IMG/VR virus record: IMGVR_UViG_3300032249_001164
Location: 1-64,000 of that record
From: a virus
DNA length: 64,000 nucleotides
Reading direction: 5' to 3' (one strand)
Both the position numbers and the translations under genes were made by a program. Shown here piece after piece: positions 4,821 through 61,409 of this stretch; position 1 is the stretch's first letter; the number at the start of each line of letters is the position of its first letter. The notes beneath the pieces were generated by a model. That model saw only the letters and a list, made by a program, of their open reading frames with translations. It did no database searches and was not told the DNA's origin.

Positions 4821-6253
4821 CTCAGTAAGTTGCTACCCCAGACAACAGAGCTTTGTAGATCTATGCAACACTGCAGCGTACCGCATTCTCCATGCCTGTT
4901 TTTAGCAACAGAAACGGCCAGCTCGTATTTATCTTTTCCCCTGTCATAGTAATGTGGTCGAAGGAGAAACATGACAATATCCGCATCTTCTTCAATTCTA
5001 CCGGAAGCGCGGAGGTCTGACATATTTGGCATTTTATCGGTCCTATTCTCCACGCCCCTGTTAACTTGACTCAACAAGAAAATGTCTATACCTGTACTTG
5101 TTCCGAGCCTTTTCAAAGCTTTTGTAACATGGCCAATATTAGATGCCTCCGTGTTTTGAGCATCACCAGAGCAGCCCTCTATAAGTTGCAGGTAATCAAT
5201 AAAAACAGCTGAAAGATTTTTTCTAGTCTTAGCAAGAAGTTTTATTTTTGCTGAAATACTTTTAATGGTTTCAGATTCATCAAAGACATGCAATCTTTTA
5301 ATCAGCCTGGAGTTCTGGTAACCTTCAAGCCTCGTCCTTTGGGCCGACGTGTAATTCCTTAGCCTCAAATTGTGGGATCGAATTGGATCGGTAAGTTCTC
5401 CCGAAGAACGAAGGCTCATGTAGTCAAGGCAAGCGATTGATTTATACTGAATCTGTTTTTTTGACATTTCTAAACTAAAAAAAGCAACATCACAGTGTAT
5501 ATCGGCTAACACGGTTGCAAGGTAAATTGCAAATGTAGTCTTGCCCATGCCGGGCCTTCCCGCTAGCACCACCAGGCGACCAGAGTACGGTGAATCCCTT
5601 TTTGCAATTCCACCCTGTATTGCATCGTCAAGCACGCTAAGGCCGGTCGGGATTACAATATCCTTGGGTAAAGGTTGAAGGGCTTCTTCAATAGAAGATT
5701 CCCAGTCGTCGTCCCTTTTATCAAGAGTTGAAGCGCTATACCATATTTCCTGCTGCCTCTCTATTAAAGATGGTATGCTTTCTTCAAATACCTTTTGATC
5801 GGGAGTGCTAGTAAGGGCTAAAGCAATCTCCTCTGCATTAGCCTTAAGACTTGTTCTTGCACATTTCAACCTCCAAACAGGAACAATGGAATACAAAGAT
5901 TCAATACTAAAAAACATTGAAGGGGACTCGGCAACCTCTTGGATGTACTGACAATCATCTTGATGCCCCATAGATAGAAGTAACTTTTCTGCCATCACGG
6001 CAATACTGCCAGGCACCACCAGGGAAGATTTGACTGAATCAAGCGCAATCTTTTTAATTACGTGAAACAATGCTTTCCGATGGTTTCCAGTAAACCACTC
6101 TTGATTAACCTGTGTTGCAATATCACAAAGCTCAGCTGTAGAACCTTGTTCACCTTCAAGATAAAAGATGCACGTAGAGAGAAAAGAGTCTTGTATCTCG
6201 CTGGTATCCCAGGTATTCATCTGGGACAGGATTGCAAAATTTCCTTCGCTCAT
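4817..6253 (-). CDS. dnaB: replicative DNA helicase, DnaB family
   Basis: Walker A GRPGMGKT, FFSLEMS, IDYLQLI, LLSQVNR, SDLRASGRIEEDAD, AKNRHG. Confidence 0.96.
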   Translation of the reverse strand: MSEGNFAILSQMNTWDTSEIQDSFLSTCIFYLEGEQGSTAELCDIATQVNQEWFTGNHRKALFHVIKKIALDSVKSSLVVPGSIAVMAEKLLLSMGHQDDCQYIQEVAESPSMFFSIESLYSIVPVWRLKCARTSLKANAEEIALALTSTPDQKVFEESIPSLIERQQEIWYSASTLDKRDDDWESSIEEALQPLPKDIVIPTGLSVLDDAIQGGIAKRDSPYSGRLVVLAGRPGMGKTTFAIYLATVLADIHCDVAFFSLEMSKKQIQYKSIACLDYMSLRSSGELTDPIRSHNLRLRNYTSAQRTRLEGYQNSRLIKRLHVFDESETIKSISAKIKLLAKTRKNLSAVFIDYLQLIEGCSGDAQNTEASNIGHVTKALKRLGTSTGIDIFLLSQVNRGVENRTDKMPNMSDLRASGRIEEDADIVMFLLRPHYYDRGKDKYELAVSVAKNRHGECGTLQCCIDLQSSVVWGSNLLR

Positions 6254-7069
6254 TTAATTTAGTGTGTAGTTAATTGGTGACATCGCGGGTTTACCTTGGT
6301 TTCCCGCTTTGGCTACACCATTCTCCTGTCCCAGCTTGTTAATAGTTTCCTTGTGCCCAGCAAAACCAAGCGACTGCCAATTTTTCTCTGCTACATATTC
6401 GCAATAAAGCTTTAAGGTTCCAGTGCTCTTGGCATACTCAAGAGCACGCATGGTGGAACTTGTAAGTTCAGGTCGAAGCTTGTGTTTTTTTTCTCTGTTG
6501 TCAAGCCATTTAAGCAAATGCTCGCGGTAGGGCTGCAACCACTCGGGCAGCTCGATGGCTGCTGGCTTCGGCTTCTGCGTGGTTCGCCTGGGGGGCAGTG
6601 GGGGGTTTTCTTCTAGATGGTTTTCTTCTAATGGTTTTCTTTCTAATGGTCTTCTATTGCGTCCGGGTTTCCCGGCGTCCGGTTTTCCCGGACACTGGTT
6701 TCCCGGCGTCCGGTTTTCCCGGACGCTGGCTGTGGCTTCTGCCGCAGGGGCCAACGAAGCCACAGCACTCGGATCCGGCCTATCGGTGACGCTGTAATGC
6801 TCGCCAACTATCTGGCCTGCTGGGTTCCTGTTTTTTACATTTACCAAATACCCAAAACATCTCAATTCAGAGAGGCCCGACAAAACCGCATCTCTACCCT
6901 CGGTTCCATGTTCAATAATCCAGGCTCTCGTAAACTTAAAACCCTTGCTGTGCGAAAGACAAACAGCAAGGATACCCTTGGCCTTGTAGCTAAGGCGCTT
7001 ATCCCTCAAGGCGTCATTAAGAACAATTGTAAAACTGTTACCAGCGCCGTTGTTTTCAAAGCTTTCCAT
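6254..7069 (-). CDS. phage replication initiator (lambda O-like organisation, N-terminal wHTH)
   Basis: FTIVLNDALRDKRLSYKAKGIL N-terminus, internal repeats, abuts dnaB. Confidence 0.8.
   Translation of the reverse strand: MESFENNGAGNSFTIVLNDALRDKRLSYKAKGILAVCLSHSKGFKFTRAWIIEHGTEGRDAVLSGLSELRCFGYLVNVKNRNPAGQIVGEHYSVTDRPDPSAVASLAPAAEATASVRENRTPGNQCPGKPDAGKPGRNRRPLERKPLEENHLEENPPLPPRRTTQKPKPAAIELPEWLQPYREHLLKWLDNREKKHKLRPELTSSTMRALEYAKSTGTLKLYCEYVAEKNWQSLGFAGHKETINKLGQENGVAKAGNQGKPAMSPINYTLN
6604..6725. repeat. probable replication origin: iterons plus AT-rich repeats inside initiator gene
   Basis: Four GGTTT(T)CCCGG units (31-bp period duplicated, 6666-6725) beside about four GGTTTTCTTCTA-like units (6604-6657). 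Confidence 0.7.
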
Positions 7070-7109
7070 TGAGATTAGTGTTAGTTAAATTAGAAATAGT
7101 TTCTCCTGT

Positions 7110-7301
7110 TTAGTTGTGGTCAACAATTGCTGCGTTACCATCTTTAATGGCAGTGCGGCGAAGTTCTGAATTTTTCCTTGAAATCATGGCTTCAACAACC
7201 AGATCTACGATATGTTGTGACATTGGGCGATGTGAGGGTTTTGTATTTCTCAGTTGTGCAACAACTTCATCCGAAAGCGAGATTGAAAACCTGGGTGCCA
7301 T
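7110..7301 (-). CDS. ribbon-helix-helix (Arc/CopG-like) regulator
   Basis: From ATG at 7301: MAPRFSISLSDEVVAQL...PMSQHIVDLVVEAM. Confidence 0.65.
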   Translation of the reverse strand: MAPRFSISLSDEVVAQLRNTKPSHRPMSQHIVDLVVEAMISRKNSELRRTAIKDGNAAIVDHN

Positions 7302-7328
7302 TGTGAAAGTGAAGCGCTGTGCCACTGC

Positions 7329-7357
7329 ATCATACTGCTGCGATGTGCAGCGGTCAA
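7329..7357 (-). promoter_or_regulatory. sigma70 promoter of replication operon
   Basis: TTGACC-17-TATGAT; spacer contains inverted repeat GCTGC-N5-GCAGC. Confidence 0.7.
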
Positions 7358-7547
7358 CCCCTGACAGCAATCGATCCCTGATGGCCCTCGAACGCCTGGG
7401 GCGGGCAAGTGGTCGCTGGGAGTCGTTTGGCGCGGCTCAGGCCCTGCTAGCGGCCTCTCAGCTGGTGTTGGTGGCCGGGTTGGGTCGAACGTGCGCCAGT
7501 GTCTGGGCGGTTCGCAGCACATACGGGCCTATGCGTTCAGTAGTTTG

Positions 7548-7576
7548 TTGACGGCCAGGCTCGCAAGCCCTAAAAT
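7548..7576 (+). promoter_or_regulatory. sigma70 promoter
   Basis: TTGACG-17-TAAAAT, about 30 nt before ATG at 7605. Confidence 0.7.
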
Positions 7577-7604
7577 TCCCTTGCTTCACTGTTTACTAAA
7601 CGCA

Positions 7605-7883
7605 ATGACGGCACTCCGCAAGTTCAAACAGTTTCACCAGGGCGACACTGTTTACGCAAGATTTTTTGACGACAGAAGTCTTGTGTTTGAGGGAATTGCT
7701 AAAACCAATTCGCCATTCCCGCATTACTTTTGTCGATTGAATGGAATTGTTTATTTGATTCCGAAAATTCATCTTTCGACCAAGAGCTTGGCACCGCTAG
7801 TGGGAGATGGAAACCATCGTCAGCTGGCGATTCCGGGGATTCTCCAGAGGGGCGAGCGCCATCAGGGATTGCTTATGGCTTGA
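7605..7883 (+). CDS. hypothetical protein
   Basis: MTALRKFKQFHQGDTVY... downstream of promoter. Confidence 0.6.
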   Translation: MTALRKFKQFHQGDTVYARFFDDRSLVFEGIAKTNSPFPHYFCRLNGIVYLIPKIHLSTKSLAPLVGDGNHRQLAIPGILQRGERHQGLLMA

Positions 7884-7919
7884 CCGGAGCTTGACCGGAG
7901 CTGGACCGGGCTGTACTGT
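7880..7919 (+). promoter_or_regulatory. promoter of sigma gene overlapped by three direct repeats
   Basis: TTGACCGGAGC x2 plus TGGACCGGGC; TTGACC(7891)-17-TACTGT(7914). Confidence 0.55.
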
Positions 7920-7997
7920 TTGGACGGCTAGCGCAAGTTTGCCGGCTATTCATCGGCAGCTTAAAATGAAATTGCTTTTTAAGTTAATTCGTTTTAA

Positions 7998-8996
7998 GTG
8001 GCTGCAAGCAGTACAGCACCAATGAGTCTTGATGATTACCTGAAAGACATCGCTCGCGTTCCCCTGTTAACAGGGGACGAAGAAATAGTGCTTGGGAATA
8101 GGGTGCAAGATATGATAAAAATCTTGAGGGAAAACGGTTTAAGTGAAAGCATCTCGCTAAATAATTTTGTTAGTTTCACGAAAGACTTGCGGCCAGAGCA
8201 AAGACGGGTGGTGGAAAAAGGGTTAAAAGCAAGGGATCGCATGATCTCAGCAAACATGAGACTCGTGGCTGCAGTCGCCAATAAGGCAAGATCGATGTGT
8301 GCTCACTTGTCAATCGAAGATTTGATGCAAGAAGGTGCCATTGGTCTTGCTAGAGCTGTTGAAAAGTTTGAACCACAGAAAGGGTATAAGTTTAGTACAT
8401 ACGCCTATTGGTGGATAAGACAGGGAATTACGAGAGCCTGGGAAAACCAGGAAAACACCATAAGAATTCCAGGTAATATTCAAAAAGCAGCCAGATTGAT
8501 TGAGAAAACCAGGGTAAGTCTATCAAAAACACTTAACAGGGAGCCGACTATTCCACAAATTGCCGAAGAGATGGGCGAAAAACCGGAACGAATTAAAAGA
8601 ATTATTTTACAAAGGGTGAAAGTGTTTTCCTTTGATCGTGATTCTTGCGGGCTTAGTCATGATGTTTTTCCTGGGAGGGACACTTTCATGGATTTCCTTA
8701 AGTACAACTGCTTTGCCACCCTTGCTCAAGAGGAAGAATCTGAAAGTATTAAAGAGATCCGTCGCATAGAAAATATTGCAATGACTATTGTCAATGCACT
8801 TCCAGAGCAAGATCAGCGGCTAATCAGACAAAGGTATGGAATAGGTGAACGCCAGCTAACAATCAAAGAGATAGCGGAGAAAAGTGGGGTAAGCCAACGA
8901 CGCATTAAAGATAAGTGCAACGAAGTTATGAGTGGAGTCGTGTTTACAGCCAAGGTATTTGCGCCTGAGGCTTTTGCCAAGGCTAAGCTTTCGTAG
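7998..8996 (+). CDS. phage-encoded RNA polymerase sigma-70 family factor (RpoD/RpoS-like)
   Basis: YLKDIARVPLLT, ANMRLVAAVA, DLMQEGAIGLARAVEKFEPQKGYKFSTYAYWWIRQGITR. Confidence 0.95.
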   Translation: MAASSTAPMSLDDYLKDIARVPLLTGDEEIVLGNRVQDMIKILRENGLSESISLNNFVSFTKDLRPEQRRVVEKGLKARDRMISANMRLVAAVANKARSMCAHLSIEDLMQEGAIGLARAVEKFEPQKGYKFSTYAYWWIRQGITRAWENQENTIRIPGNIQKAARLIEKTRVSLSKTLNREPTIPQIAEEMGEKPERIKRIILQRVKVFSFDRDSCGLSHDVFPGRDTFMDFLKYNCFATLAQEEESESIKEIRRIENIAMTIVNALPEQDQRLIRQRYGIGERQLTIKEIAEKSGVSQRRIKDKCNEVMSGVVFTAKVFAPEAFAKAKLS

Positions 8997-9011
8997 AAGT
9001 AGTCATCAGAG

Positions 9012-10799
9012 ATGCCAGGCACGAGACTGATCGGGCAAAGCGCTAGCGGTCGCGACAATGCCGCAATGGTCACCGACAGCGGAGCCCTCAAGGTGGAGGT
9101 AGACGGCGGTGGCGCAGGCGGTAGCGACCTTGCTGCTACCAATGCCTTGCTCGGGCCTATTGACGAAGCGGCTCCAACTACTGACACCGCCAGCTCTGGT
9201 CAAAATGGTAGGCTTCAACGGATTGCTCAGCGACTAAGCTCGATTATTCTTAAGTTGCCGGCGTTTGGTACTGCCGGTGCGCCTAGTTCGGATGTGTTGA
9301 CGGTGCAAGGGGCTTCCAGTGGAACCATCCTACCGGTTGCTCCAAGGGTTACCCTTGGTGTTGGTAACGCAGATGGCAGCACTCAGCGAGTGACACTAGC
9401 TAGTGACAGCCCGGCGGTAATATCGCTGGCTGCGATAGCCAGTAGTCAGCCAGACGTGCTAACTGCGCTAGCCGCACCATCCAATCATGGTTCAGTGGTT
9501 CGACATGCGCAGTGTCTTCAGTGGAAAGCGGATTTATCTAGTACTGGGCCTGGCTTATTGGCGCCAGAGCTAACACTGCGGTCACCGTCTTCGCTATTTG
9601 TGTCGCAAGCTAGTGGCAACCTGATTGTTAACCCGGGCACAGTCGCAAATGCTGAAATGCTTTGCAGGTCTTCTATATCATTTAAGGGATCAATAGCTCT
9701 ACGGTGGCGTTTACTGCCATCCCAAAGGATAGCAAACAGTAATTTAATGGTTTTGCTTGCCGATAGGATTGGTGAAAACCTTAGCTATGTATGTACTGCC
9801 ACGAATGTAACCGTAACGCTTCCTGGCCACTCATATACGTCAGCCAACGTTGGCCAGTCTATGATGTTAGGCGCTATTACTGGCTCGGCTGGTATTCCTG
9901 GGCGATACGCTATTGCCAGCGTTAGCGCAAACACTGTTGTCCTTACCGTTGCTGGCTGGCCAGCTACTGGTAGCGGCACGCTTGACTTGTTTGGGCACAG
10001 CTACGTGCAACAACTTTACTCTGGTACTGCAAACGCTGCGCTTGACGCCCAGCGTATGGGTTGGAATACTGGTTCTATAGTAATAACTGCCACTACCTAC
10101 GCCACTGCTCATGCTGCATCTATTCAGTTAGACGGCAGAACCGCTACAACCTGTCGAACGGGAACAGGGGATGTGCTTGTGTTATCGGCATCAAGATCAG
10201 ATATTGTACCAGATGAAAATAAGGATTTATTTTTGTATCTGTGGGCTCACAATGGCTCTACAGCACCAGCTTCTGCAACAACGTGGACTATATCGTCTTT
10301 ATCGCTGGAAGAGAATATTAACATCCCCTTATACCTAGCGGGTATGAAGCAGTCGGGGGTTGGATCCCCAGTAGCGATGACAGGTAGCGTTGCGGTGTCA
10401 GCTTTCTCAACCGGTGCCGCACTATCTAATGACGTTGGTGTTCAATACCGTGCTACCGTCACAGGTGGTGCCACGCCCGCCAAGGTAATATCTTCGGTGG
10501 CAAGCCCAAGCTCAATACTTAAAGTTGGAGCAACACGACCGCTTGGGTGGAACCTGGTAAATACTACGGCTTTGTGGGTATACGGCAAGCTTTACAACTC
10601 AACAACAGCAGGGGCTGGTGCTTTGGGAGTTACTATTCCAATTGCAATTCCACCCAACGGAATTAACTCCCATTTCAGCGAAGGTGGGCTGACAGGCTTT
10701 TCTACCGGCCTTACGCTTACCACCGTAACAGGCGCTGCTGACTCTAGCGCCACGGCAGCGCCTGATGGTGCTATAGTTGGTTCGGTGTTTTTTGCTTAA
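9012..10799 (+). CDS. beta-rich virion structural / fibre-like protein
   Basis: 595 aa, Ala/Gly/Ser/Thr-rich, predicted beta strands; preceded by late-type motif GGCTAAGCT (8981-8989). Confidence 0.6.
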   Translation: MPGTRLIGQSASGRDNAAMVTDSGALKVEVDGGGAGGSDLAATNALLGPIDEAAPTTDTASSGQNGRLQRIAQRLSSIILKLPAFGTAGAPSSDVLTVQGASSGTILPVAPRVTLGVGNADGSTQRVTLASDSPAVISLAAIASSQPDVLTALAAPSNHGSVVRHAQCLQWKADLSSTGPGLLAPELTLRSPSSLFVSQASGNLIVNPGTVANAEMLCRSSISFKGSIALRWRLLPSQRIANSNLMVLLADRIGENLSYVCTATNVTVTLPGHSYTSANVGQSMMLGAITGSAGIPGRYAIASVSANTVVLTVAGWPATGSGTLDLFGHSYVQQLYSGTANAALDAQRMGWNTGSIVITATTYATAHAASIQLDGRTATTCRTGTGDVLVLSASRSDIVPDENKDLFLYLWAHNGSTAPASATTWTISSLSLEENINIPLYLAGMKQSGVGSPVAMTGSVAVSAFSTGAALSNDVGVQYRATVTGGATPAKVISSVASPSSILKVGATRPLGWNLVNTTALWVYGKLYNSTTAGAGALGVTIPIAIPPNGINSHFSEGGLTGFSTGLTLTTVTGAADSSATAAPDGAIVGSVFFA

Positions 10800-10806
10800 T
10801 TGATTC

Positions 10807-11067
10807 ATGGCCAAAACATTGAAGCTGCTGGTCAACGGCCCTATTGATGGGGTCGAATACGCGGCCACTCAGCTGGTTGTCTTCGATAACGACGACCAGG
10901 CTGATGGCCTGATCGCTAGTGGAGTTGGCGAAATCTACACCAATGAGTTCGGCACCACCACTAGCCACGATGCCAGGGTCGCGGCACTGCTCGCTTCCTA
11001 CGGGGAAGTGGTTGCTGAACCCGAGCCAGGCGCTTCGTCTTACGAAGAGCCTCAGCCGGAATCCTGA
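10807..11067 (+). CDS. small acidic hypothetical protein
   Basis: 7 nt after previous stop, followed by terminator. Confidence 0.65.
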   Translation: MAKTLKLLVNGPIDGVEYAATQLVVFDNDDQADGLIASGVGEIYTNEFGTTTSHDARVAALLASYGEVVAEPEPGASSYEEPQPES

Positions 11068-11095
11068 CAAATCAAGGATTGATGTATTAACGTGG

Positions 11096-11137
11096 CCATC
11101 GACCACTTGCTCTCATGGGCTGGTGGTCGATGGTTTT
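11096..11137 (+). terminator. intrinsic terminator between convergent operons
   Basis: CCATCGACCAC...GTGGTCGATGG followed by TTTT. Confidence 0.7.
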
Positions 11138-11894
11138 ATTTTGCTTTTGACGTGACATTAGGAAACGTAGCTACGGCGCGAGAAAAGTAAGCTTCGCGAT
11201 CCGTCAAGCCATTGGCCGGATCTCTTCCGTTAACCCTGGCTGACACTTGGCGGCAGGTTGCGCCGGAATCACAATAGGGGTTCATTCCATTGAGATGCCA
11301 CCAAAAGCCAGCGGAAGTAAATGGATAGTTGTTGGCAACATAGGCCGAGCCATCCATTACTGCCGCATCTTTGATAAAATCGGCGAATCGTTGGTAATTG
11401 TAGCGCCCAGTTAACTGAATCGCTCCGGCGCCTTTGTAGCGTTGGCCATCGCCAACTCTTGTATTCCCCAGGTCCGTGCGTCCCTCATAAGCGCTTCCGC
11501 TAGCTAGTTCCGTCATCCAGCGTAATCCACCTGATTCATGTCCAACCTGCGACAGGAAGTGACGAATCCGGGCTGGGGTGTTGATAGCGAAGCGCTGTAG
11601 GCAGGAATTCAAGTCAGCCAGCTGGCTCTCTTCCGGGGCGCGAGTAAATACGGCGGTGGCTTGGGCCATGCTTACCAGTTGAGGCGCCGCCGGAGCGGCG
11701 ACCGTGGAAGCCGTCAAGGGGGCTTTCGCCGTATTCTCGGCCTTCCAGGCGCTCCGAAGCTTTCCGCCCTCCTGGAGGGCCTCTGGATCGAGTTCCATCA
11801 GGCGGTCGAGCACTGCCAGAAGCCAGGCTCGGTGATGGGCTTTGCTTGGATCGTAATAATCAACGTAATCGCGGCTTGGGGTCTTGAATTTCAT
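11136..11894 (-). CDS. endolysin, glycoside hydrolase family 19 (chitinase-like)
   Basis: [47 protein letters not shown]. Confidence 0.92.
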
Positions 11895-12199
11895 TTGTGA
11901 TTTAGCAGATAGTTGCGAGCGGCGTTGACGGGATCATAGAGGCCGATTATCGCTTCAACTTGGCTCGGGCTGGCGGGTCTGTTAGTTACGGATGTGATAG
12001 CGCCTGCGATAGCGCCTTGCACCCTGAGTGGAGAGGAGTTGTTGAGAGTTAAGACTAGTAGCTCGGAATCTAGGCGTTTATAAACTTCGGTTAAGCCAAG
12101 TTCCAATACTTTGCCAAGGGCCATGCGAAGCAAGCGCCTGGAAAGAGTAATTAAAAGAGGTCTCATGCTGGTGATTTCGTAAGAATGCCGCCAATCCAT
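11891..12199 (-). CDS. lysis-cassette hypothetical protein
   Basis: ATGA overlap with endolysin; true start probably MRPLL. Confidence 0.6.
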
Positions 12200-12408
12200 C
12201 CAGCAGCGGCGGCAACAGCGGCAGCAACTGCAGTTGTCTGTGGATCGCAGTTGTTAGGAATACGATGGCGGCAGATCGCCAGATCGGTGGCGGAAATTGC
12301 TATCCCAGCCGATAGTATTCCAACTAGACATCGAATTAGGAAAATGCGCTCACTACTTAAAGCTTTTTTTGGGCTTGTACTTTGCCCCTGGGAAGTGGCT
12401 TGGCTCAC
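12163..12408 (-). CDS. holin-like two-TM membrane protein
   Basis: Two hydrophobic segments, upstream of endolysin. Confidence 0.5.
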   Translation of the reverse strand: MSQATSQGQSTSPKKALSSERIFLIRCLVGILSAGIAISATDLAICRHRIPNNCDPQTTAVAAAVAAAAGWIGGILTKSPA

Positions 12409-39217: not shown

Positions 39218-40891
39218 TCAAGACTCGCTTTGCTCATCCACATGCTCGGGTAGCTCCCCATCGGCCCCGCCACCTACTGACTCCTGGGGATCGTTTTGGA
39301 CGTAGAGCCTGTTATTGGCATCGCCCTGCGCTGGCCTTGGCTTGACAATCTCGGACCTGCGCTCCGAGCCTTTGAGGCCCATTTTCTCAAGCAGGGTTTT
39401 GACACTGAAACCATGCATTCCCTCAAACATTTCACCAGCCTCAAGCATTTCAAGGAAAGTTTGAATGGGGATAGCCTCAGAATCTTTATAGAGAGAGTTG
39501 ATAGCGATAACTTGTTGGCTATGGAGCTTAGCTGGAATAAAATTCTTGCTAAGCGCAACTTTTACGAATGGATATGCGTCAGCCCTGTATCCAGACGCAT
39601 ACCACAATGCTCGATTGAGGCAGTCTTGTAGCGAACCGATCAAAACAGCAAGCTGGGAGTCCGATTGCGACCTATCAAGAAGCTTTGCAACGCCAGACTC
39701 TATCTGATTCTTACCTGAGGCGATTGCAATGGCGGCAAGGCGGTCCATCGCGTTTTCGATTCTACCAAGCTGCTTGAGTGTCGTCTCGGCGCCATCCATA
39801 CCAGGGGATACCATACCAAATCTTGCATTTTCATTTCTACTGAAAAGACTGCGACCAGACCCAGCCCATACCTCTTCATCAGGACTGACGCCAGTGCCAG
39901 TTAAAAGCGGAGAAGAATTTAAGTGAATCGTTTCCGTTAAGTCAGCAGATGTCGCCCAGTGATGCAAATTTAGCCTTGCAATGTCAAATAGCAGAGGTCT
40001 TGCGCGGCAAAAAGCTTCTTCTTTCCCGCCGTAACAAGGCACAAACGGAATGTAGTTAATCGAAAGGAATGTTTCGCCGTTTTCCGGTATAATGTAACTG
40101 TCGGCAGCCCCTGAGGCATTTTTTTCGTAAATACGTACACGAACATTTCCGCTTTTCTCTGGAATGTCATAAACCACAACAGTTGGCACCACTTCCTCGT
40201 AATGCTCGTTATCGAGGCTGGCTCTCCTGATTTCTGATTTAATCCTCAAGTAAACAACTCTTGCCTCGTAAGACGTAATATTGTTGATAGTAACAGGACC
40301 GTTTTCATGCCTGCAATCCAGAATATCATCAACCTTAATAATTGTAAAGTATGGGCGCAGCTCCATACTACGTTGAACCGCTTTGTCGTCAGTGTCAACC
40401 CTGGGGTAATCTGCTATTAAGCCAGCAATTCCGCCGTTCAATGCTTCCGTGAACAGGGTTTTGGCGAAAGATGTGATCGACCTTCCTTCAAGGTTTACGT
40501 TTTCAAAAAACTTTTTCCATTCTTCTGTGAGTTCCTGTGGAAGAACTACGCCTTTCCTGAGAGCGGTACCGACGATGATGTCTACGTAGTGCGAATAAAA
40601 CGGCTGAAAACAGGTCATCGCTCGCGTCATGCGAACGTTGTAACTCTCTTTTTGCTCTTGGAAGTCCTGTGGGATGTACTCGTCTATCGCTTCATCAAGA
40701 TAAAACTCTGGTAGCGTGCAAAACTTGATAGGCAGAATCCGTGAAACTTGTTCTGCCTGGTCAGGTGAATATATGTCTACGCCCGTAACCTCTGCGTAAA
40801 CTTTTTCTGTTTCAGGCGCCCTTCTGTCGAAAGGGGCTGGCAGATCATCGGCACTCAAGACGATGGAATTAGGAACGCCAATTGAGGGCAC
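39218..40891 (-). CDS. portal protein (DUF4055-like)
   Basis: Y..R..RA, NVNLEG, IPFVP.Y, PLLFDIARLNLHHW...AD. Confidence 0.88.
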   Translation of the reverse strand: MPSIGVPNSIVLSADDLPAPFDRRAPETEKVYAEVTGVDIYSPDQAEQVSRILPIKFCTLPEFYLDEAIDEYIPQDFQEQKESYNVRMTRAMTCFQPFYSHYVDIIVGTALRKGVVLPQELTEEWKKFFENVNLEGRSITSFAKTLFTEALNGGIAGLIADYPRVDTDDKAVQRSMELRPYFTIIKVDDILDCRHENGPVTINNITSYEARVVYLRIKSEIRRASLDNEHYEEVVPTVVVYDIPEKSGNVRVRIYEKNASGAADSYIIPENGETFLSINYIPFVPCYGGKEEAFCRARPLLFDIARLNLHHWATSADLTETIHLNSSPLLTGTGVSPDEEVWAGSGRSLFSRNENARFGMVSPGMDGAETTLKQLGRIENAMDRLAAIAIASGKNQIESGVAKLLDRSQSDSQLAVLIGSLQDCLNRALWYASGYRADAYPFVKVALSKNFIPAKLHSQQVIAINSLYKDSEAIPIQTFLEMLEAGEMFEGMHGFSVKTLLEKMGLKGSERRSEIVKPRPAQGDANNRLYVQNDPQESVGGGADGELPEHVDEQSES

Positions 40892-41054: not shown

Positions 41055-42458
41055 TCATCTCCAGCGGCCACCATAACCAGCCCTAGCGCTAGCGCGTGGA
41101 AAGACCTGCCACAGTAAGTACCTTAAAGCATCTCCGATGTGCGAATGGTCAACAGCACCACCCTTTGATGGCTTCAATGTTTTGGAATCGTAAGACCAGC
41201 GCTCAGCCACGTTCATAGTGTTGTGACACGTTGTTGGATTGAAAAGCACTAAATCGCGACGCATGTGAACGTTTGCGTGAGCCAGTGTATCCGCAATGTA
41301 TGGGTTTTTGCTTTCTGTCAGAATTCTGACGCCAGCAGCAAGGAGGATCTCGTGATCAGTTTGTGTTGATGAAGTGGAATCATGGGAGCCGCTTGCATCT
41401 GGACAGCAAGTAATCAGGCCAGCCGCAAGGTGTCGTGGATACTTTTGCTGAAGATGGGTTACTAGCGAGAAAGTGTCAGCCACTTTCGACTCTGCAAAAC
41501 AGTGCAGCTCTTGACCCATTCGACCAGCCCTGACAACCCCGTACAGAGCGTGGCACTGGCCAACGTTGAAGTCCGCTCCAAATATAATCCGCTCTTCTGG
41601 TTCTGGTAGAAACACGCCAGTTGTATGCCTAGCCCTGTTGAATTCAAAGAAAACTGTAGCCGATTCAAGATTTACAAACTCACCATTAAGATAGGCTTTG
41701 ACGAGCTGTGGATGGTACTTGCTTTTAAGATCTTCAACAAAACTTTTATCGAGGTAAGGATTGTCTTCCGATTTTCCGCGATACAACTCTTTGTTGTCTG
41801 CTTTCTGTTCCTCGAAGAATGTGTACATAAAGCCATAGCCCTCTGGCGTAGAAGCTGCGGCGATCTGAGGGCAGTTACCAACCCGTACACGACCCTGAAG
41901 CTTGATCATCGCCTTTTCCGCAATCTCCTGGGGAGTAGTATCTGTTTCGTCAGAAGCAATGCTTGCTGCGTTGACACCAATTAGGCGTTGGTAGTTCTCC
42001 ATTGAGCGAAGGAGAACAGGTGTTGGGCCACCGGGGAGAAGTAGCTTAAAGACTGGCCTGGGGGATACCTTAAAGGTGTGGGGAATGCTATACTTCTCCA
42101 GAAGTATGTTCCACTCTGGCAACGCAACGTCGTCAATTAGTGGAATTGTGGGTTCAAGGAATAAATGCGTAAACCCCTGGGACCTGAAACAAAGTAGAAG
42201 CTGCTTGCAAATCAAGGATCTTGTCTTTCCGCTGCCATAGCCTCCACAGAAACCCACGTACTTATGGCTAAAGTCTGTAACAAAGTTGCGCTGGTACGGA
42301 AGTAGGCCTTCAATAATTTTTACTTCAGCCGCTTTTACGTCAAATGTTGAATTGGCTCGGCGCTTAAACTTTTGCTTGACGCTTGCATCTGCCAGCAAGC
42401 CAAGACCGTTGGCTGCCGCTCGGTCGGCATAGGCACTGGATCTTGATCGTGCTGGCAT
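41055..42458 (-). CDS. terL: terminase large subunit
   Basis: GGYGSGKT, ASIASDE, STPEG, GADFNV, HIGDALRY. Confidence 0.95.
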   Translation of the reverse strand: MPARSRSSAYADRAAANGLGLLADASVKQKFKRRANSTFDVKAAEVKIIEGLLPYQRNFVTDFSHKYVGFCGGYGSGKTRSLICKQLLLCFRSQGFTHLFLEPTIPLIDDVALPEWNILLEKYSIPHTFKVSPRPVFKLLLPGGPTPVLLRSMENYQRLIGVNAASIASDETDTTPQEIAEKAMIKLQGRVRVGNCPQIAAASTPEGYGFMYTFFEEQKADNKELYRGKSEDNPYLDKSFVEDLKSKYHPQLVKAYLNGEFVNLESATVFFEFNRARHTTGVFLPEPEERIIFGADFNVGQCHALYGVVRAGRMGQELHCFAESKVADTFSLVTHLQQKYPRHLAAGLITCCPDASGSHDSTSSTQTDHEILLAAGVRILTESKNPYIADTLAHANVHMRRDLVLFNPTTCHNTMNVAERWSYDSKTLKPSKGGAVDHSHIGDALRYLLWQVFPRASARAGYGGRWR

Positions 42459-48910: not shown

Positions 48911-50557
48911 TCAAGCCCTCGCCAGCGTTACGCTCTCGATCTGACCCTGGTACTTACCTGACCGATCCTCGTAGCTAGTGCCGCATGGCTCACCACTGAA
49001 GAACAGAGCCTGTACGATTCCTTCGTTGGCATAAATTCGTACATCGGCATCGCTACTATTGCTGAACTCCAGTGTTAAATGGCCATGCCACGAGTTACCT
49101 GTCCATGAAACCCTGCCTCGATGGCGCATTAAGAAAACGTGTGACGGCACCGTTAAGTCGTACACAAAGCCAGAGTACGGAATTTCTTCACAGTTTTCGG
49201 GTGAAATCCTTGACGGACTCGGATTGCGAGAGGAAAAGCGACAAACGTGGCTGGCAAATGTTTTTCCGTTAATGGTGCTTTCTTTTGCCCAGCATGTGGC
49301 GTAGTCTCCAATCTTGAGGCATATCTCCTGAAAGTCGTCAACCAACTGCTTGCTAACGCTGACATAGGTAGAGGTTTGGATATTTCCGTCAGAATGCATC
49401 ATGCCCTCGCGGATCAAGGCGAGTTGATCAGCTGGAAGATTGATATACTCCCTGGGAATGCGCTTATTGCGAGCGCCCCTGAATTGCATTAAGTAAAGGC
49501 AAGTTGCCTTGTGGTGAAATGCAAAACCGTACCCTGTCTCACTAAAGTTGACACCAAGAGATTGCAGGACTTCCTTGAAATAGGCTCGTTTGCGCTCTTT
49601 CGTGACAACAGCGAGCTTGATGACGTAGTTGCCGCCTGATTGCACATAGGTCGAGCCATCCCCCAGCCAGCACCCCAAGAATCTGAGCCATGCATTTGTC
49701 GGATATTCGCGCTCACCAATGGTCACAGTATTGCCAATCCTGGAGCCAAGCCAGTCAACATCCCGAGACAGGTAGAGATTGTGCTTGCCAAATACTGTCT
49801 GAGCCTCAACACGCTCAAACGGGTAGGCCATTGACGCCTTGCGACGGACGCCTGCAACTCGTCCAGGTGCATAGCCCGCCTCGGCCTCAATCCGCCGCTT
49901 GGAGATCGCTGCCCACATCATGTGGCCCGGAGTTACAACCTGCGAAACCACTTTGCTCTGAAATGAGAGCATTTTGCCATTAAAGTGATAGCGGTGGAAA
50001 TCTTGCACCGGCTGGTAGACGGCTTTCGTGTTATCCAGACACATAACCTCCTCGCCAGTGAGAACTTCTGAAATTAACTTCCATCCAGTTCTGCAGAGGA
50101 CTTCGGTATCTTCAGAGAGACACGCTTCACCCGGAGTTAGATTAGCAATTACCCCGCACCTAGCGTATGTACTTTTTCCAATGAAGAGAGCTGTAATATT
50201 AGGTGGTATTCTTAGGTGTTCTAGCGCTACGCCTAACCCGTAACTATGGTGCGGCAAGACGAAAAACTTTCCCCACCTGTCTTCCTGGAGTTCTACTGGC
50301 TGCAGGTTGATTTCACTGAATGCTTTTGGGTTGACCACCGTACCAGGTACGTGCCTGAAAACCAAAAACTCTTTTGGAGATAAGCGCAAGTCATAGCCGT
50401 AGCTACTGGCGCCGTAGCTAATGGCGGGTATCACAAGCTGACTGGCACCGTCTAGCGTTTCGCCGTGCTCAATACGACGAATCAGTTTAGGCACGAAGGG
50501 CGTAATCATGCCCTTTTCTGCCAGTAGCTTAATGGCTGTGTCGTTAAGGATGGTCAC
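48911..50557 (-). CDS. dcd: dCTP deaminase containing an intein
   Basis: ISYGASSYGYDLRL, GKSTYARCG, TPGEA|intein|SWHGHLTLEFSN, YANEGIVQ, GKYQGQ. Confidence 0.93.
   Translation of the reverse strand: MTILNDTAIKLLAEKGMITPFVPKLIRRIEHGETLDGASQLVIPAISYGASSYGYDLRLSPKEFLVFRHVPGTVVNPKAFSEINLQPVELQEDRWGKFFVLPHHSYGLGVALEHLRIPPNITALFIGKSTYARCGVIANLTPGEACLSEDTEVLCRTGWKLISEVLTGEEVMCLDNTKAVYQPVQDFHRYHFNGKMLSFQSKVVSQVVTPGHMMWAAISKRRIEAEAGYAPGRVAGVRRKASMAYPFERVEAQTVFGKHNLYLSRDVDWLGSRIGNTVTIGEREYPTNAWLRFLGCWLGDGSTYVQSGGNYVIKLAVVTKERKRAYFKEVLQSLGVNFSETGYGFAFHHKATCLYLMQFRGARNKRIPREYINLPADQLALIREGMMHSDGNIQTSTYVSVSKQLVDDFQEICLKIGDYATCWAKESTINGKTFASHVCRFSSRNPSPSRISPENCEEIPYSGFVYDLTVPSHVFLMRHRGRVSWTGNSWHGHLTLEFSNSSDADVRIYANEGIVQALFFSGEPCGTSYEDRSGKYQGQIESVTLARA
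49094..50122 (-). mobile_element. intein (343 aa) with LAGLIDADG homing endonuclease
   Basis: Starts CLSEDTEV, block B VTPGH, FLGCWLGDGS and GMMHSDG, block F VYDLTV, ends WTGN before Ser+1. Confidence 0.92.
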
Positions 50558-53102: not shown

Positions 53103-53496
53103 TGAGGAGTGGCTTGGGGTACGGTAATACTGGGGTGTAGGGTAATGTAATGATAATGGGGTAAGTTGTAAGCTAGGTTAGTTGTAAGGAAGGTGGTGGT
53201 GGAATGGGGAAAAAAGTTAGGGAGGGGGGTAACCGTACACCACGCCCTCTCCAACCTCCCACCCCCCCTACATCCAACCTGCAAGATGTAACCTCATTTT
53301 TCGCAACCGCAAACCTATTAGACTTGACATACATTAAGCCAGATGGTGACTCAGGACATAGCATAACATATTGTTTGACTACATCTAACGGTGGTAGTGT
53401 AAGCTTGCACATGTTTGTGGGTCGAGTTAGGTTGAGATAGAGAGAGGAGGGTTAGGTTGGGCTGGGGCCTATTGCTAGGCCCCGCAATTCTAGGGT

Positions 53497-54099
53497 TTAC
53501 TTTTTAGCGTAGAAGTCTCGAACTAATGCGATGCCACTAGGTCGCATAACAGCGAAGCGACCGGCCACGTTAGCCACTTGAGCTAACAGGTTAGTCTGAC
53601 CGCTGCCTGTCAGAACTTGCGACCATTTACGGGCTTTTTGTAGTTGGGGCGCTGTAGCTAGGACCGTCAGTAGTACCGGGACTGGCAGTAAGCCACCATT
53701 GGCAGCGCTTTCGCCAGCGTGCAGGCGGTGCCCTGCCCAGTCATTTTGCAATGCCGCCCAAATGACTAACAGCAATGGATCATGGCGCCTTGGCGGACAT
53801 ACAGGGCCGTCTAGGGCCGATAAATCCTTTGGCGCTGCCACAAAGGCCGGCTCACCCGCGATCTGGGCGCCCGGTCCTCTGGCGGGGAACCGTGCGGGAA
53901 GCTCCATGGGAACGGCAAGCGCTGCGGCAGCCGATACGGTGGCCGGTGACCAGGCCACGGGGAGAACCGCTGGCTTTGGCTTGGCAGATGCAACAACAGC
54001 AGACTGTCTCATTGCAGCGATCATCGCATCGAGCGATAGCAGCAGTCCAGAATCATCAGGTTCTGGCGCAGATACAACTTTCTTGGGTGCGCTGGTCAT
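53497..54099 (-). CDS. hypothetical Ala/Pro-rich protein
   Basis: Own promoter TTGCCA-18-TATAAT (about 54155-54184) and downstream GC hairpin with GCAA loop. Confidence 0.65.
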   Translation of the reverse strand: MTSAPKKVVSAPEPDDSGLLLSLDAMIAAMRQSAVVASAKPKPAVLPVAWSPATVSAAAALAVPMELPARFPARGPGAQIAGEPAFVAAPKDLSALDGPVCPPRRHDPLLLVIWAALQNDWAGHRLHAGESAANGGLLPVPVLLTVLATAPQLQKARKWSQVLTGSGQTNLLAQVANVAGRFAVMRPSGIALVRDFYAKK

Positions 54100-54540
54100 G
54101 GCATGGTTTGCTAGGTGGATACAGCTTCGCCCTTGTGGCCGTTGCTGCCCTCAAATTATAGGCGGTGAACCTGTTAGGTGGCAAGCCCTGGCAGCTTTTA
54201 AGGTCTGGCGGTTCGCAAACCGTAACATTAGCCGGCTTCCAGCCTTTGCTTTTTCGCAATTTTGCTTGTGCTGCCAACGTGCTACCTGTCACCAGCTGCG
54301 GCCAGAATCGACCAAAAATGGCAAACTACAAACAATCGGAGCCGTGCTCCAATTAACCTAAATCTCTTAAAGTCTTCAGTTCAGTAGCAACGGCGAGCCG
54401 CCAAACTATCACTACGCCAAACCACAATTCAATCAGCCAACGTGCAACGTATAAAGTATAGCCGAGCGGGATAGTGAACATAACAATTATCGCGTACTTT
54501 GTAGCGCAAACCCTATGTAAATACAGTTTGATGTAGGACC

Positions 54541-54890
54541 TGTAACCCATAAGCTGTAAGGTGTCAATCGTAACTTATGCCACGTAAAGTGCAAGGCATA
54601 AGGTGTAACTAGTAACCAGTAGCTAATAGTTTGTAAACTGTAAACTGTAAACTGTAACCTGTAAGGTGTAACCTACAACATGTAACCTGTAACCTACAAC
54701 ATGTAACCTACAACCTGCAACGTGTAACCTGTAAGGCGTAACGTGTAACCTGTAAGGCGTAACCTACAAGGTGCAACGTGTAACCTACAACCTACAACCT
54801 ACAACCTACAACCTGCAACCTACAGCCCGTAGCGTGCAAGGTGCAAGGTGCAGGGTGTGGCGTGTGGCGTGTGGCGTGTGGCGTGTGGCG
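54541..54890. repeat. array of 50 in-phase degenerate heptamers
   Basis: TGTAACC, TACAACC, TGCAACC/G, TGTAAGG, TGTAAAC, TGTGGCG units with no phase break. Confidence 0.92.
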
Positions 54891-55148
54891 TGAATGATTT
54901 AATGTGTAAGGTGAATGGCTAAGCGAATGCAATTCAAGGCGCATACTGAGTGAATGGCTTTTAAGCTGTAATCCTGAATGAATGGTGAATGGCCGCGGCA
55001 TGTAACATCAAATGAATGGCCTCGGCAGATAATATTGCATGAATGGCTTTAGGGTTAAATGGGTGAATGCAATTTTGAATGAATGGCCTCAGGGTTGAAT
55101 GGGTGAATGAATGGCCGCGATACTGAACCTGCAACCTGTAACCTGTAG
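54891..55148. repeat. dispersed TGAATGG(C) repeats, then a few more heptamers
   Basis: More than 10 GAATG cores, six TGAATGGC; ends TGCAACC TGTAACC TGTAGAG. Confidence 0.85.
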
Positions 55149-55151
55149 AGT

Positions 55152-55724
55152 TCAGGGTTCATCGAAAGTCCCTGGATCTTCTAAATCGTTGCCATCAGGA
55201 TCAAGATCAGGCGATGGCAAGGCAGAAGGTCGATTCTTCTCAATTGCATTAAAGTAAGTGCTAACTAGGAAACCTCTTACCTGTCCAGATCCAGCCCTGA
55301 GCAAGAAAGGACTGAGAATGTAAAGTTTTTCCCCTGTTCTTGAGTCTGTAATAGGAACCAGTAAGTACCGCTCTTTTAGTCTCCTAATACTTGGGTACAA
55401 TGTTTTTCGCTTATGTCCAAGTATTTCAGCAACTTTTTGTGTCGTTAACCTGCAACGTCCTGTTCTCCAGTCTGAGTGAATAATGTATACCATCAAGACG
55501 ACAAAATCTTTATTTTGAAGTTTATTCGCTGAAATATCTAAAATTAAACTGCGAAGTCCACCAACCTGAAGGCTTAGGAACCTATCTCCATCGTCGGGGT
55601 CCAACCCCGAATCCTCAAGGTCCAAGCCTTGACCAATGCCGTTTTGGTATAAATTGATACCGTTTTCGCTGGATTCAGTCACAATCGAGTCATACCAAGG
55701 GGTTTGGGCTCTGTGCCGCAACAC
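55152..55724 (-). CDS. winged-HTH protein, RepL-like
   Basis: RLTTQKVAEILGHKRKTLYPSIRRLKERYLL...YILSPFL. Confidence 0.65.
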   Translation of the reverse strand: MLRHRAQTPWYDSIVTESSENGINLYQNGIGQGLDLEDSGLDPDDGDRFLSLQVGGLRSLILDISANKLQNKDFVVLMVYIIHSDWRTGRCRLTTQKVAEILGHKRKTLYPSIRRLKERYLLVPITDSRTGEKLYILSPFLLRAGSGQVRGFLVSTYFNAIEKNRPSALPSPDLDPDGNDLEDPGTFDEP

Positions 55725-55977
55725 TAAGGTACCACGTTAGATGGAACAAAGTCTATCCAGACGGGGTTGATTTTCCGATGGTACAGAGCTGAGATCCCTT
55801 GGTATGACAGGGCCGTTTTGCAGTCCTCTTAATTCTCTATCTAATGTCTGGATCGGAAATTTCCCAGCAGGCAGCCCGAAGGTCGTTCTCGACCCCCTCG
55901 AAGGTCCAACCCGCAAGGTCGAAAGTGCAGCCTGCAGGGTCGGGGTAAGAGGCCAGCAGGGGTGGAATAGCCTGGAA

Positions 55978-56772
55978 TTAGTCACTATCAGCTTCTTCCA
56001 GGGCAATTAGCAAATTATCGACACCAAGGGCACTACTTTGAAGGCTCTTACCAACATCAGCAAGCTTGGCTGCAACATTTAACATACCAGGTAAATCTCT
56101 TGTATCTAGCGGTTTATCGTCATCTAACATTTTGGACAGTGTAGAATTCGCCAGTAATGCAATACGTGCAGCATTCAGGGTTAATTGCTGACCTAAAGCC
56201 TCTTGTTCTTGGCGATATTTCTCTAATTTACGAATATGAAGGTCATGTTTAGCATCTTGAGACTGTTTCATCTTCTTTACAAGCTCTGCCCTGTCGTAAT
56301 CCTCGGTTCTACGCTTCCAACTGTTCTTTGCACTTACTTTACTTAGTGCCGAGGGTGTAACGTTGGATACCACTGAGATATATTGAAGGGAACGCCCCCC
56401 ACCGTACATACAATAAAGTTTGAACAGCTCGAATTCCTTGTCAGTTTCGTTAGTAGCGAGGTAGCTTCTCTTATCCCAAGAGTTGCTAGAAGAGGTGGTG
56501 GTAGTTAGGGTGTGATGTACCGCGAGTAAATCTTTAGTAGTTGGGGGTGCATCGTCAGGGTCAACCTCGATAGATTCATCATCCATCAGGGCTTCCTCAA
56601 GTGCGTCCTTAAATGTTTCACCTTCACCTTCCTTAACATCATCCTCAATCTCTCCGTATTCATTGAGATTTCCTGTAAATTCTTCAACTTCACCTTCGTC
56701 GGTGAATCCCTGTAGATCATTCCTTAAGGTATCAGCAGCTTCATTCAGGTGCTCAAAATCTTGGGGGTTCAC
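55978..56772 (-). CDS. probable terminase small subunit with acidic N-terminus
   Basis: ETDKEFELFKLY...GRSL...NSWKRR..YD HTH followed by helical oligomerisation region. Confidence 0.55.
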   Translation of the reverse strand: MNPQDFEHLNEAADTLRNDLQGFTDEGEVEEFTGNLNEYGEIEDDVKEGEGETFKDALEEALMDDESIEVDPDDAPPTTKDLLAVHHTLTTTTSSSNSWDKRSYLATNETDKEFELFKLYCMYGGGRSLQYISVVSNVTPSALSKVSAKNSWKRRTEDYDRAELVKKMKQSQDAKHDLHIRKLEKYRQEQEALGQQLTLNAARIALLANSTLSKMLDDDKPLDTRDLPGMLNVAAKLADVGKSLQSSALGVDNLLIALEEADSD

Positions 56773-57495: not shown

Positions 57496-57627
57496 CAGGG
57501 CTACCCGTGAGGTTAAGGGCCGTTTGCCTGTAAAACCAGGCCCGCCCCATCGCTTAACCTGTAGATTTAGCGATCACAACATGTGAGGTTGCGGGATAGT
57601 GAATATACAAGCTTTAGCCCTTAGCCT

Positions 57628-61345: not shown

Positions 61346-61409
61346 CCCCGATTTTGCCTCCAAATCTGTCTCGATTGCCTGCAAAGTTGCGGGATAGTGA
61401 ACCTGTAGC

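Follow-up and report, generated by a model that had tools for sequence, protein, structure and literature searches.

Recognition of viral DNA by terminase is still poorly understood: pac and cos sites described to date are short and idiosyncratic, and the way in which the small terminase subunit (TerS) recognizes DNA is debated (PMC4737164). At the pac site of SPP1, three sets of direct repeats are found at the terS gene, and rings of TerS helix–turn–helix (HTH) domains have been proposed to wrap the DNA (PMC4737164). Here, we analyze a module from IMG/VR virus record IMGVR_UViG_3300032249_001164 in which a gene for a 264-aa TerS-like protein is followed by a gene for a winged helix–turn–helix (wHTH) protein and then by two families of 7-bp direct repeats, which together span ~600 bp and comprise ~64 units in a single orientation (Table 1). 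The window that we analyzed consists of positions 1 to 64,000 of this record, i.e., the first 64 kb of one 79,539-bp phage contig, and the module belongs to a clade of widespread freshwater phages known mostly from metagenomes.

The module resembles the pac site of SPP1 and SF6 and its TerS protein G1P in that sets of short direct repeats lie by terS, and in that the TerS combines an N-terminal HTH with a helical oligomerization core, as predicted here from a structural model. It differs in that SPP1 has three small sets of boxes spanning the terS promoter and start, whereas here ~64 units spread over 600 bp lie downstream of terS with a second DNA-binding gene between them, and in that terS is 13.5 kb from terL and its product shows no detectable sequence homology to G1P. 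The ends of T7 provide a second point of comparison, as 11 same-strand copies of CCTAAAG occur in nt 17–338 of its genome (NC_001604, read directly) at spacings of 13, 25/26, and 54 bp (multiples of ~13), within and just inside the 160-bp terminal repeat, with more copies before the right repeat. Both genomes thus carry a one-strand 7-bp motif at irregular spacing (here about 12–14, 27, and 39 bp), which in our case is bracketed by a second heptamer family, and distant wHTH homologues are encoded just upstream of terL in T7-like cyanopodoviruses; we consider this an analogy, not homology. In contrast to T7, the present phage is siphovirus-like and its large subunit, TerL, is of the Terminase_6N and not the T7 type, while T7 lacks an uninterrupted array of 50 units, and neither TerS nor wHTH genes flank its junction. 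Finally, the cosB site of lambda (R3-I1-R2-R1) is bound by the winged helix of gpNu1 together with IHF, and comprises three 16-bp R sites in mixed orientation alongside a defined cosN. The likeness, which for our locus is a proposed one, lies in several repeats by terS and an accessory DNA-bending factor that nucleate terminase. Our locus, however, has dozens of 7-bp units that all face the same way, no recognized nicking site, and a winged helix that forms a protein of its own and not the N-terminus of TerS.

A fixed order of two genes and two repeat families

Eleven independent viral contigs encode the TerS-like protein (L005–L012, L063, L066, and L074, with L109 and L010 being one contig). 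In all of them, a gene of the wHTH family (hidden Markov model (HMM) E 7e-82 to 2.6e-6) comes directly after the TerS-like gene, and next comes a same-orientation cluster of CCATTCA motifs, with TTRYA-type heptamer repeats wherever the contig continues. The repeat units themselves vary, being 14-bp tandems in L009 and L011, 29–30 bp in L006, and 27–28 bp in the window and in L007 and L008, and the heptamer array extends over 110 to 350 bp at the same position in different relatives; the repeat cores, their orientation, and their position are constant across the clade. In the five places where both can be seen, the module lies upstream of terL and on the same strand, at distances of 3.2 kb (L074), 10.5, 11.3, 13.5 (the window), and 27 kb. 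Contig L074 (IMGVR_UViG_3300005528_000326, 4824–12253) is a useful minimal version, with the TerS-like gene, a divergent wHTH, CCATTCA and ATTACA-type repeats, an Ala-rich homologue of p200 (the gene that follows the repeats in the window), two small open reading frames (ORFs), TerL, and portal in 7.5 kb. These arrangements fit an ancestral TerS–TerL cluster into which other genes may have been inserted, separating terL from a terS gene that remained at the arrays.

The initial annotation had proposed that the two genes and both repeats form one module, in which a non-periodic repeat family bracketed by heptamers begins immediately after the stop of the wHTH gene and the TerS-like gene lies 13.5 kb from terL. 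The conserved order bears out the first of these points, and the layout is as described: the wHTH stop codon (55152–55154) directly abuts the first heptamers, and 13,520 bp separate the TerS-like gene from the start of terL at 42458. TGAATGG, the plus-strand form of the CCATTCA motif, occurs 19 times in the 64-kb window, as compared to a mean of 9.4 and a maximum of 16 in 100 shuffles; nine plus-strand copies fall within 54912–55114, and seven of these read TGAATGGC. On the minus strand, the CATTCA core is found 14 times in the block versus 15 times in the 13.8-kb surround, with no reverse complement in the block, and its spacing is irregular, ranging from 4 to 39 bp with recurring values of 27, 27, 39, and 24 (also about 12–14). 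Four more same-strand TGAATGG copies lie within 900 bp beyond the window (genome positions 67448–68312), inside small early genes, and may reflect chance or a paralogous peptide motif.

The long heptamer array, in turn, has a lag-7 identity of 0.81 over 350 bp and is the sole lag-7 periodic stretch in the 79.5-kb genome. We rejected a coding role for it, as the ORFs that cross it are inconsistent between relatives. The three heptamers next to the wHTH gene are followed by a degenerate TCAGTATCGCG box, and the relatives likewise show a short heptamer run with a TCACTATC-type box. An invariant box (GTTCACTATCCCGC/TTCACTATCCCGC) follows the long array in the window and in L005–L012; its three genomic copies (54467–54480, 57592–57605, and 61390–61403) share the minus strand, and the two in the early region lie ~150 bp upstream of promoter cassettes. 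Some relatives have AT-rich sub-repeats distal to the array. In L006, a 133-aa ORF that is possibly homing-endonuclease-like (L006:7913–8314) lies inside the CCATTCA/heptamer region and splits the block without removing it. A scan of viral contigs for three CCATTCA copies returned mostly unrelated DNA, with 4 of 119 loci among the matches listed belonging to the clade, and provides no measure of co-occurrence outside it.

The TerS-like label of the initial annotation is upheld by several independent comparisons. The protein matches phrog_6299 (“terminase small subunit”, E 4e-8), and its sole tblastn matches are the terS genes of S-CBS2 and S-CRES1-3 (E 6e-11 to 5e-8), which sit directly upstream of terL in those phages. 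A profile of 35 homologues aligned to S-CBS2 TerS by hhalign with a probability of 99% (E 3e-18, 152 columns), and judged from sequence the 264-aa protein is a true homologue of S-CBS2-type TerS. Its AlphaFold2 model shows a disordered, acidic N-terminal stretch of 100 residues, a three-helix HTH (111–149), and a long helical hairpin (152–263; 67+38 residues, pLDDT around 90), and the predicted combination of an HTH with a long helical hairpin is the usual TerS architecture. Searches with this model in Foldseek and VIA returned generic helical hairpins only (EsxA, ESCRT-III, chemoreceptors) and no solved TerS, which is uninformative and not evidence against TerS, and a sequence-profile search of the PDB returned nothing. 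TerS genes usually adjoin terL, which this one does not. Nonetheless, it is the only TerS candidate found in the genome: the small ORFs beside terL, in the window and in its relatives, have no TerS, Pfam, or PHROG match, and one relative has an unrelated small HTH ORF in this position. The TerS and upstream ORFs of KBS-S-2A and Jerseyvirus were considered as counterparts and rejected, being unrelated both to the TerS-like protein and to the ORFs upstream of terL in the window.

Alignment of orthologues places the start of the wHTH gene most likely at GTG 55682, which makes the protein 176 aa long, instead of at the first possible start in the ORF of 190 aa. The AlphaFold2 model consists of a disordered N-terminus, a MarR/SarA-like core (residues 37–150, pLDDT around 90), and a C-terminal helix, and the conserved C-terminal tail is acidic and aromatic (DDLEDPG-x-[FYW]-DE). 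Among solved structures, Foldseek and VIA returned the winged helices of MarR, MepR, SarA, TFE, DnaD-N, and ORC with Z scores of 5.3–6.6, the best being the MarR, MepR, and SarA repressors, and a PDB sequence-profile search gave weak MarR-type matches only. The winged-helix part of the initial “RepL-like wHTH” label therefore stands, with a predicted fold that is generic and not initiator-specific. The RepL part is a weak lead as judged from the profile matches, and does not amount to family membership: Pfam RepL (PF05732) matches 17 of 33 orthologues and 11 of 32 distant members below threshold (best E 9e-5), while the window protein itself has no RepL match and hits HTH_17 only (E 0.016–0.019).

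An exhaustive profile search recovered 230 representative clusters of wHTH relatives, mostly stand-alone proteins of 110–180 aa. A tblastn search of cultured phages for distant members found S-SRP02 only, and single-protein scans of viral contigs for the contexts of distant members yielded nothing usable; their genomic context is known from two annotated genomes. In these two T7-like cyanopodoviruses (S-SRP02 and MedDCM-OCT-S38-C3, Autographiviridae), the homologue heads an operon that ends in terL and is divergent from an integrase/MarR operon, with no comparable repeats nearby. wHTH homologues without flanking repeats therefore do occur among the distant relatives, and none was found inside the clade.

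Upstream of the wHTH gene, an RNA stem is predicted on the minus strand, in which GTCATACCAAGGG (55808–55796) pairs across ~100 nt with CCCTTGGTATGAC (55701–55689). A closing stem of 12–13 bp is predicted in each of four sequences, and the stem is kept in all five aligned sequences, with a single G-U change, while its inner helix shows compensatory substitutions. The arm at 55689–55701 holds the ATG from which the orthologous wHTH genes start. An 11-nt duplication in the window puts this ATG out of frame (four codons, then a stop), and GTG 55682 lies downstream of the 3′ arm. The stem is probably a translational gate on the wHTH gene.

A possible role in packaging initiation

While the TerS-like protein and its HTH are well conserved (HMM E 1e-34 to 1e-124, identity 44–67%), identity within the wHTH family ranges from 13 to 62%, with changes in recognition-helix residues, and both DNA motifs remain unchanged. 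Because the motifs and the TerS-like protein are constant while the wHTH protein diverges, we infer that recognition of the motifs by the wHTH protein alone is less likely than recognition by the HTH of the TerS-like protein, or recognition based on array shape or multivalency.

Our preferred reading, held tentatively and with a probability of roughly 0.45, is that the module marks a genome end or a site recognized by terminase, with the wHTH protein in an accessory role. The 264-aa protein would then be the real TerS of the phage, with its gene having stayed beside its DNA target and not beside terL. The ~600-bp same-orientation repeat region, made up of the CCATTCA block and the TTRYASS heptamers, would be the site at which TerS oligomers assemble, and the wHTH protein a site-specific binding or bending partner. 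The complex of the TerS-like protein, the wHTH protein, and DNA could then recruit TerL for the first cut. This cut would either start pac-type (headful) packaging or be made at a T7-like terminal junction, where the CCATTCA block would be the terminal repeat. We favor this reading because the TerS-like protein is the sole TerS candidate, because the module lies upstream of terL on the same strand, because the motifs track the TerS-like protein, and because the region holds no unwinding element or DnaA box. The position of the distant wHTH homologues in the two cyanopodoviruses, at the head of the operon that ends in terL, points in the same direction, as does, by analogy, the similar appearance of SPP1 pac and the T7 end regions with their sets of short direct repeats.

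Several observations weigh against such a role. The gene that touches the arrays is that of the wHTH protein and not the TerS-like one, and its weak signals (RepL, the N-terminus of lambda O, DnaD-N, HTH_36) are those of replication initiators. To our knowledge, 50 contiguous heptamers is far above any described pac or cosB site, and there is no repeat cluster near terS in S-CBS2 and S-CRES. Compared to S-CBS2 TerS, the TerS-like protein lacks the last ~22 residues and carries the 100-residue acidic N-terminal extension. The closest cultured relatives of TerL are those of cyanosiphoviruses (KBS-S-2A, S-H1, P-HS2) and Jersey-like enterobacterial phages (~35–38% identity). As this KBS-S-2A/Jersey-like TerL is not detectably similar to the TerL of S-CBS2, which partners the homologous TerS, the pairing of TerS and TerL in our phage is a presumed one. 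As to the packaging type, TerL shows only a generic Terminase_6N domain. The assembly does not give the physical genome ends, because the contig closes on itself through an exact 123-bp terminal overlap (genome 1–123 and 79417–79539), reflecting either a circular assembly or collapsed terminal redundancy.

Were the packaging reading to be true, the module would be a tractable model of multivalent TerS–DNA assembly and would help to define the genome ends of this freshwater phage group. The clade offers a natural system for terminase recognition, with an unusually large and regular target (~14 CCATTCA copies and up to 50 in-phase heptamers), a terS gene that has remained at the site presumably recognized by its product, and a winged-helix partner that is dedicated and evolves fast. 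Should the region prove to be an additional origin or a barrier, it would be even more surprising that a TerS homologue is recruited to it without exception.

Competing explanations for the arrays

The initial annotation had left the choice between a second replicon and a packaging complex open, and the evidence now leans toward packaging. We retain as the main competitor, although we consider it somewhat unlikely, a second replication origin. There, the wHTH protein would act as an initiator (of the RepL, lambda O N-terminal, or DnaD-N class) and bind the repeats downstream of its gene as iterons, in a mode of replication other than that of the lambda-like origin at 6.6 kb, for example late replication. 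As in lambda O/ori, RepL plasmid replicons, and SaPI rep-ori, a winged-helix gene abuts direct repeats (in 11 of 11 loci), and the similarities to RepL, Phage_rep_O, DnaD_N, and HTH_36 point to initiators, as do the BFVD neighbors ranking after the protein’s own orthologues, which are named RepL, replication initiator, and replisome organizer (E 2e-4 to 3e-3). The L074 protein also matches DnaD-like and O-like PHROGs weakly, and acidic, aromatic C-terminal tails such as that of the wHTH protein resemble those that recruit replisomes. However, none of these matches reaches its curated threshold (among distant members, those to MarR_2, HTH_36, Phage_rep_O, and DnaD_N are likewise below it), and the fold is of the generic MarR type (Z up to 6.6). 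No helicase-loading domain or partner was found nearby, no DnaA box occurs within 54.0–55.3 kb, and no AT-rich unwinding stretch stands out there, with the highest AT content of any 40-bp window being 68%. The repeats are constant while the wHTH protein diverges to 13% identity, whereas initiators and their iterons would usually be expected to change together, and the invariant partner is a TerS homologue.

Furthermore, the initial annotation had noted an initiator and ori at 6.2–7.1 kb, and the phage does already have a full set of initiator, iterons, and DnaB: the main initiator (6254–7069, phrog_4707) has internal iterons at 6604–6729, adjoins the DnaB helicase gene, and forms with it the sole such pair, at 4.8–7.1 kb. 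The wHTH protein was rejected as a paralogue of this initiator (hhalign probability 0.7%). In the 3-kb smoothed GC skew, the change from − to + falls at 6597, exactly on the iteron origin inside the initiator gene. A sign change at ~55.2 kb (~55225), at the repeat block and wHTH gene, could be counted in favor of an origin there, but we rejected it as such a signal, as it runs from + to −, which is terminus-like, and coincides with the compositional boundary between the early (45–47% GC) and middle (50–56% GC) regions and with an Ala/Pro-rich gene.

A further scenario, which we regard as unlikely, is a two-protein nucleoprotein machine that couples two processes at this locus. A ring derived from TerS and an initiator-type winged helix would each recognize a different one of the two 7-bp families that are interleaved along the polar 600-bp array. 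The machine could, for example, tie the initiation of packaging or the formation of ends to the initiation of replication or the arrest of forks. If true, a siphovirus would have reinvented a T7-like terminal junction and would encode the recognition proteins at the junction itself.

It is distinctly improbable that the array is coated by protein and works like a centromere, anchors the genome, or forms a polar roadblock, whether on the model of ParR-parC, omega-heptad, and TubR-tubC or as a replication or transcription barrier between the early region and the rest of the genome. Contiguous heptads with no spacers, to which a small protein binds cooperatively, characterize the omega sites of Inc18 plasmids, and ParR and TubR centromeres typically contain arrays of short repeats; here, too, long contiguous short direct repeats lie by the gene of a small DNA-binding protein that could polymerize along them. 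All repeats point one way, making the array polar, and it is located exactly at the early/middle boundary at which the skew changes from + to −. However, no ParA, ParM, or TubZ-type NTPase, no integrase, and no other plasmid- or lysogeny-type sign was found among the ~50 ORFs, part of the genome’s total, that were scanned against Pfam and PHROGs. In addition, and unlike the present protein, omega and ParR have ribbon–helix–helix folds and not winged helices, the TerS-like protein has no relatives in 185,579 prokaryote genomes and hence no evidence of a prophage state, and the invariant TerS homologue is left unexplained.

We judge it very unlikely that the arrays serve transcriptional control, with a MarR-like wHTH protein bound upstream of the promoter of the next operon (p200 and nucleotide-metabolism genes) and timing the early-to-middle switch. 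The best solved-structure matches are repressors, there is a promoter-like site downstream of the arrays, translation of the wHTH gene is apparently gated by the RNA stem that includes the start codon of the orthologues, and the homologue in the two podoviruses heads an operon divergent from an int/MarR module. Against this, ~64 sites spread over 600 bp and located 300–1000 bp upstream of the promoter are far outside normal operator design, the promoter is a consensus match only, and the linkage to a TerS homologue is again unexplained. Finally, a functionless, slippage-prone satellite comparable to the cyanobacterial STRR heptamer repeats would account for the differences between relatives in unit number, unit length (14, 27–30 bp), and variants, and for the ORF tolerated inside the L006 block, but is highly improbable given that the array is unique in the genome and that its position, orientation, 7-bp phase, and both cores are kept in 11 contigs in which the TerS-like and wHTH proteins have diverged to 44–67% and 13–62% identity, respectively.

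Feature coordinates and genomic setting

Table 1. Positions of the module, the repeat region, and related genes in the 64-kb window.
Feature	Position	Strand	Evidence or remark
TerS-like gene, 264 aa	55978..56772	-	phrog_6299, tblastn, hhalign, AlphaFold2
Intergenic spacer, 295 bp, holding conserved element CAAAACGGCCCTGTCATACCAAGGG	55683..55977	-	Element kept in 8 loci
Winged-helix (wHTH) gene, 176 aa	55152..55682	-	Frame open up to 55724
Three heptamers, TACAGGT TACAGGT TGCAGGT (minus strand)	55126..55147	-	TRF period 7, 3.1 copies
TGAATGG(C) block, 14 (G)CCATTCA(Y) copies on the minus strand	54891..55125	-	One orientation, irregular spacing
50 uninterrupted in-phase heptamers, consensus TTRYASS (minus strand)	54541..54890	-	TRF period 7; repeat families D1-D3
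Conserved box GTTCACTATCCCGC	54467..54480	-	Distal end of repeat region
Terminator-like hairpin with T-rich tail; possible end of read-through transcription across the arrays	54333..54355	-	Consensus scan only
Predicted sigma-70-like promoter for downstream operon (TTGCCA, 18-bp spacer, TATAAT)	54155..54184	-	Consensus scan, 11/12 matches
p200, conserved Ala/Pro-rich gene, 200 aa, after the repeat region	53497..54099	-	Homologues after arrays in L006, L008, L009, L010, L074
terL	41055..42458	-	phrog_2 E 6e-27; Pfam Terminase_6N
Portal gene, after terL	39218..40891	-	phrog_145 E 2e-58

Almost all genes of the phage are carried on the minus strand, and its recognizable genes include those for Rad52, DnaB helicase, the lambda-O-like initiator, a sigma factor, tail, portal, and TerL, as well as ThyX, a primase zinc ribbon, a dCTP deaminase, and thymidylate kinase. 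p200 has no Pfam or PHROG match, and searching the Atlas for it gave nothing informative. Downstream of it, at 53172–53282 on the minus strand, lies a long hairpin with weak Rfam matches to miRNA precursors, which is probably a terminator or processing hairpin, and across 53.0–57.5 kb, Rfam gave only chance matches of this miRNA-like hairpin kind.

Two genes have features suggestive of insertions. On the L006 contig (G002:C1:11607–13484), the TerL matches fall in two pieces (residues 1–82 and 73–467) within one 632-aa open frame, which suggests a terL with an intein-like or other in-frame insertion. In the window, a 548-aa ORF at 48911–50557 (minus strand) combines a dCTP deaminase-like domain with a weak LAGLIDADG match and is possibly an intein-containing or fused homing-endonuclease gene.

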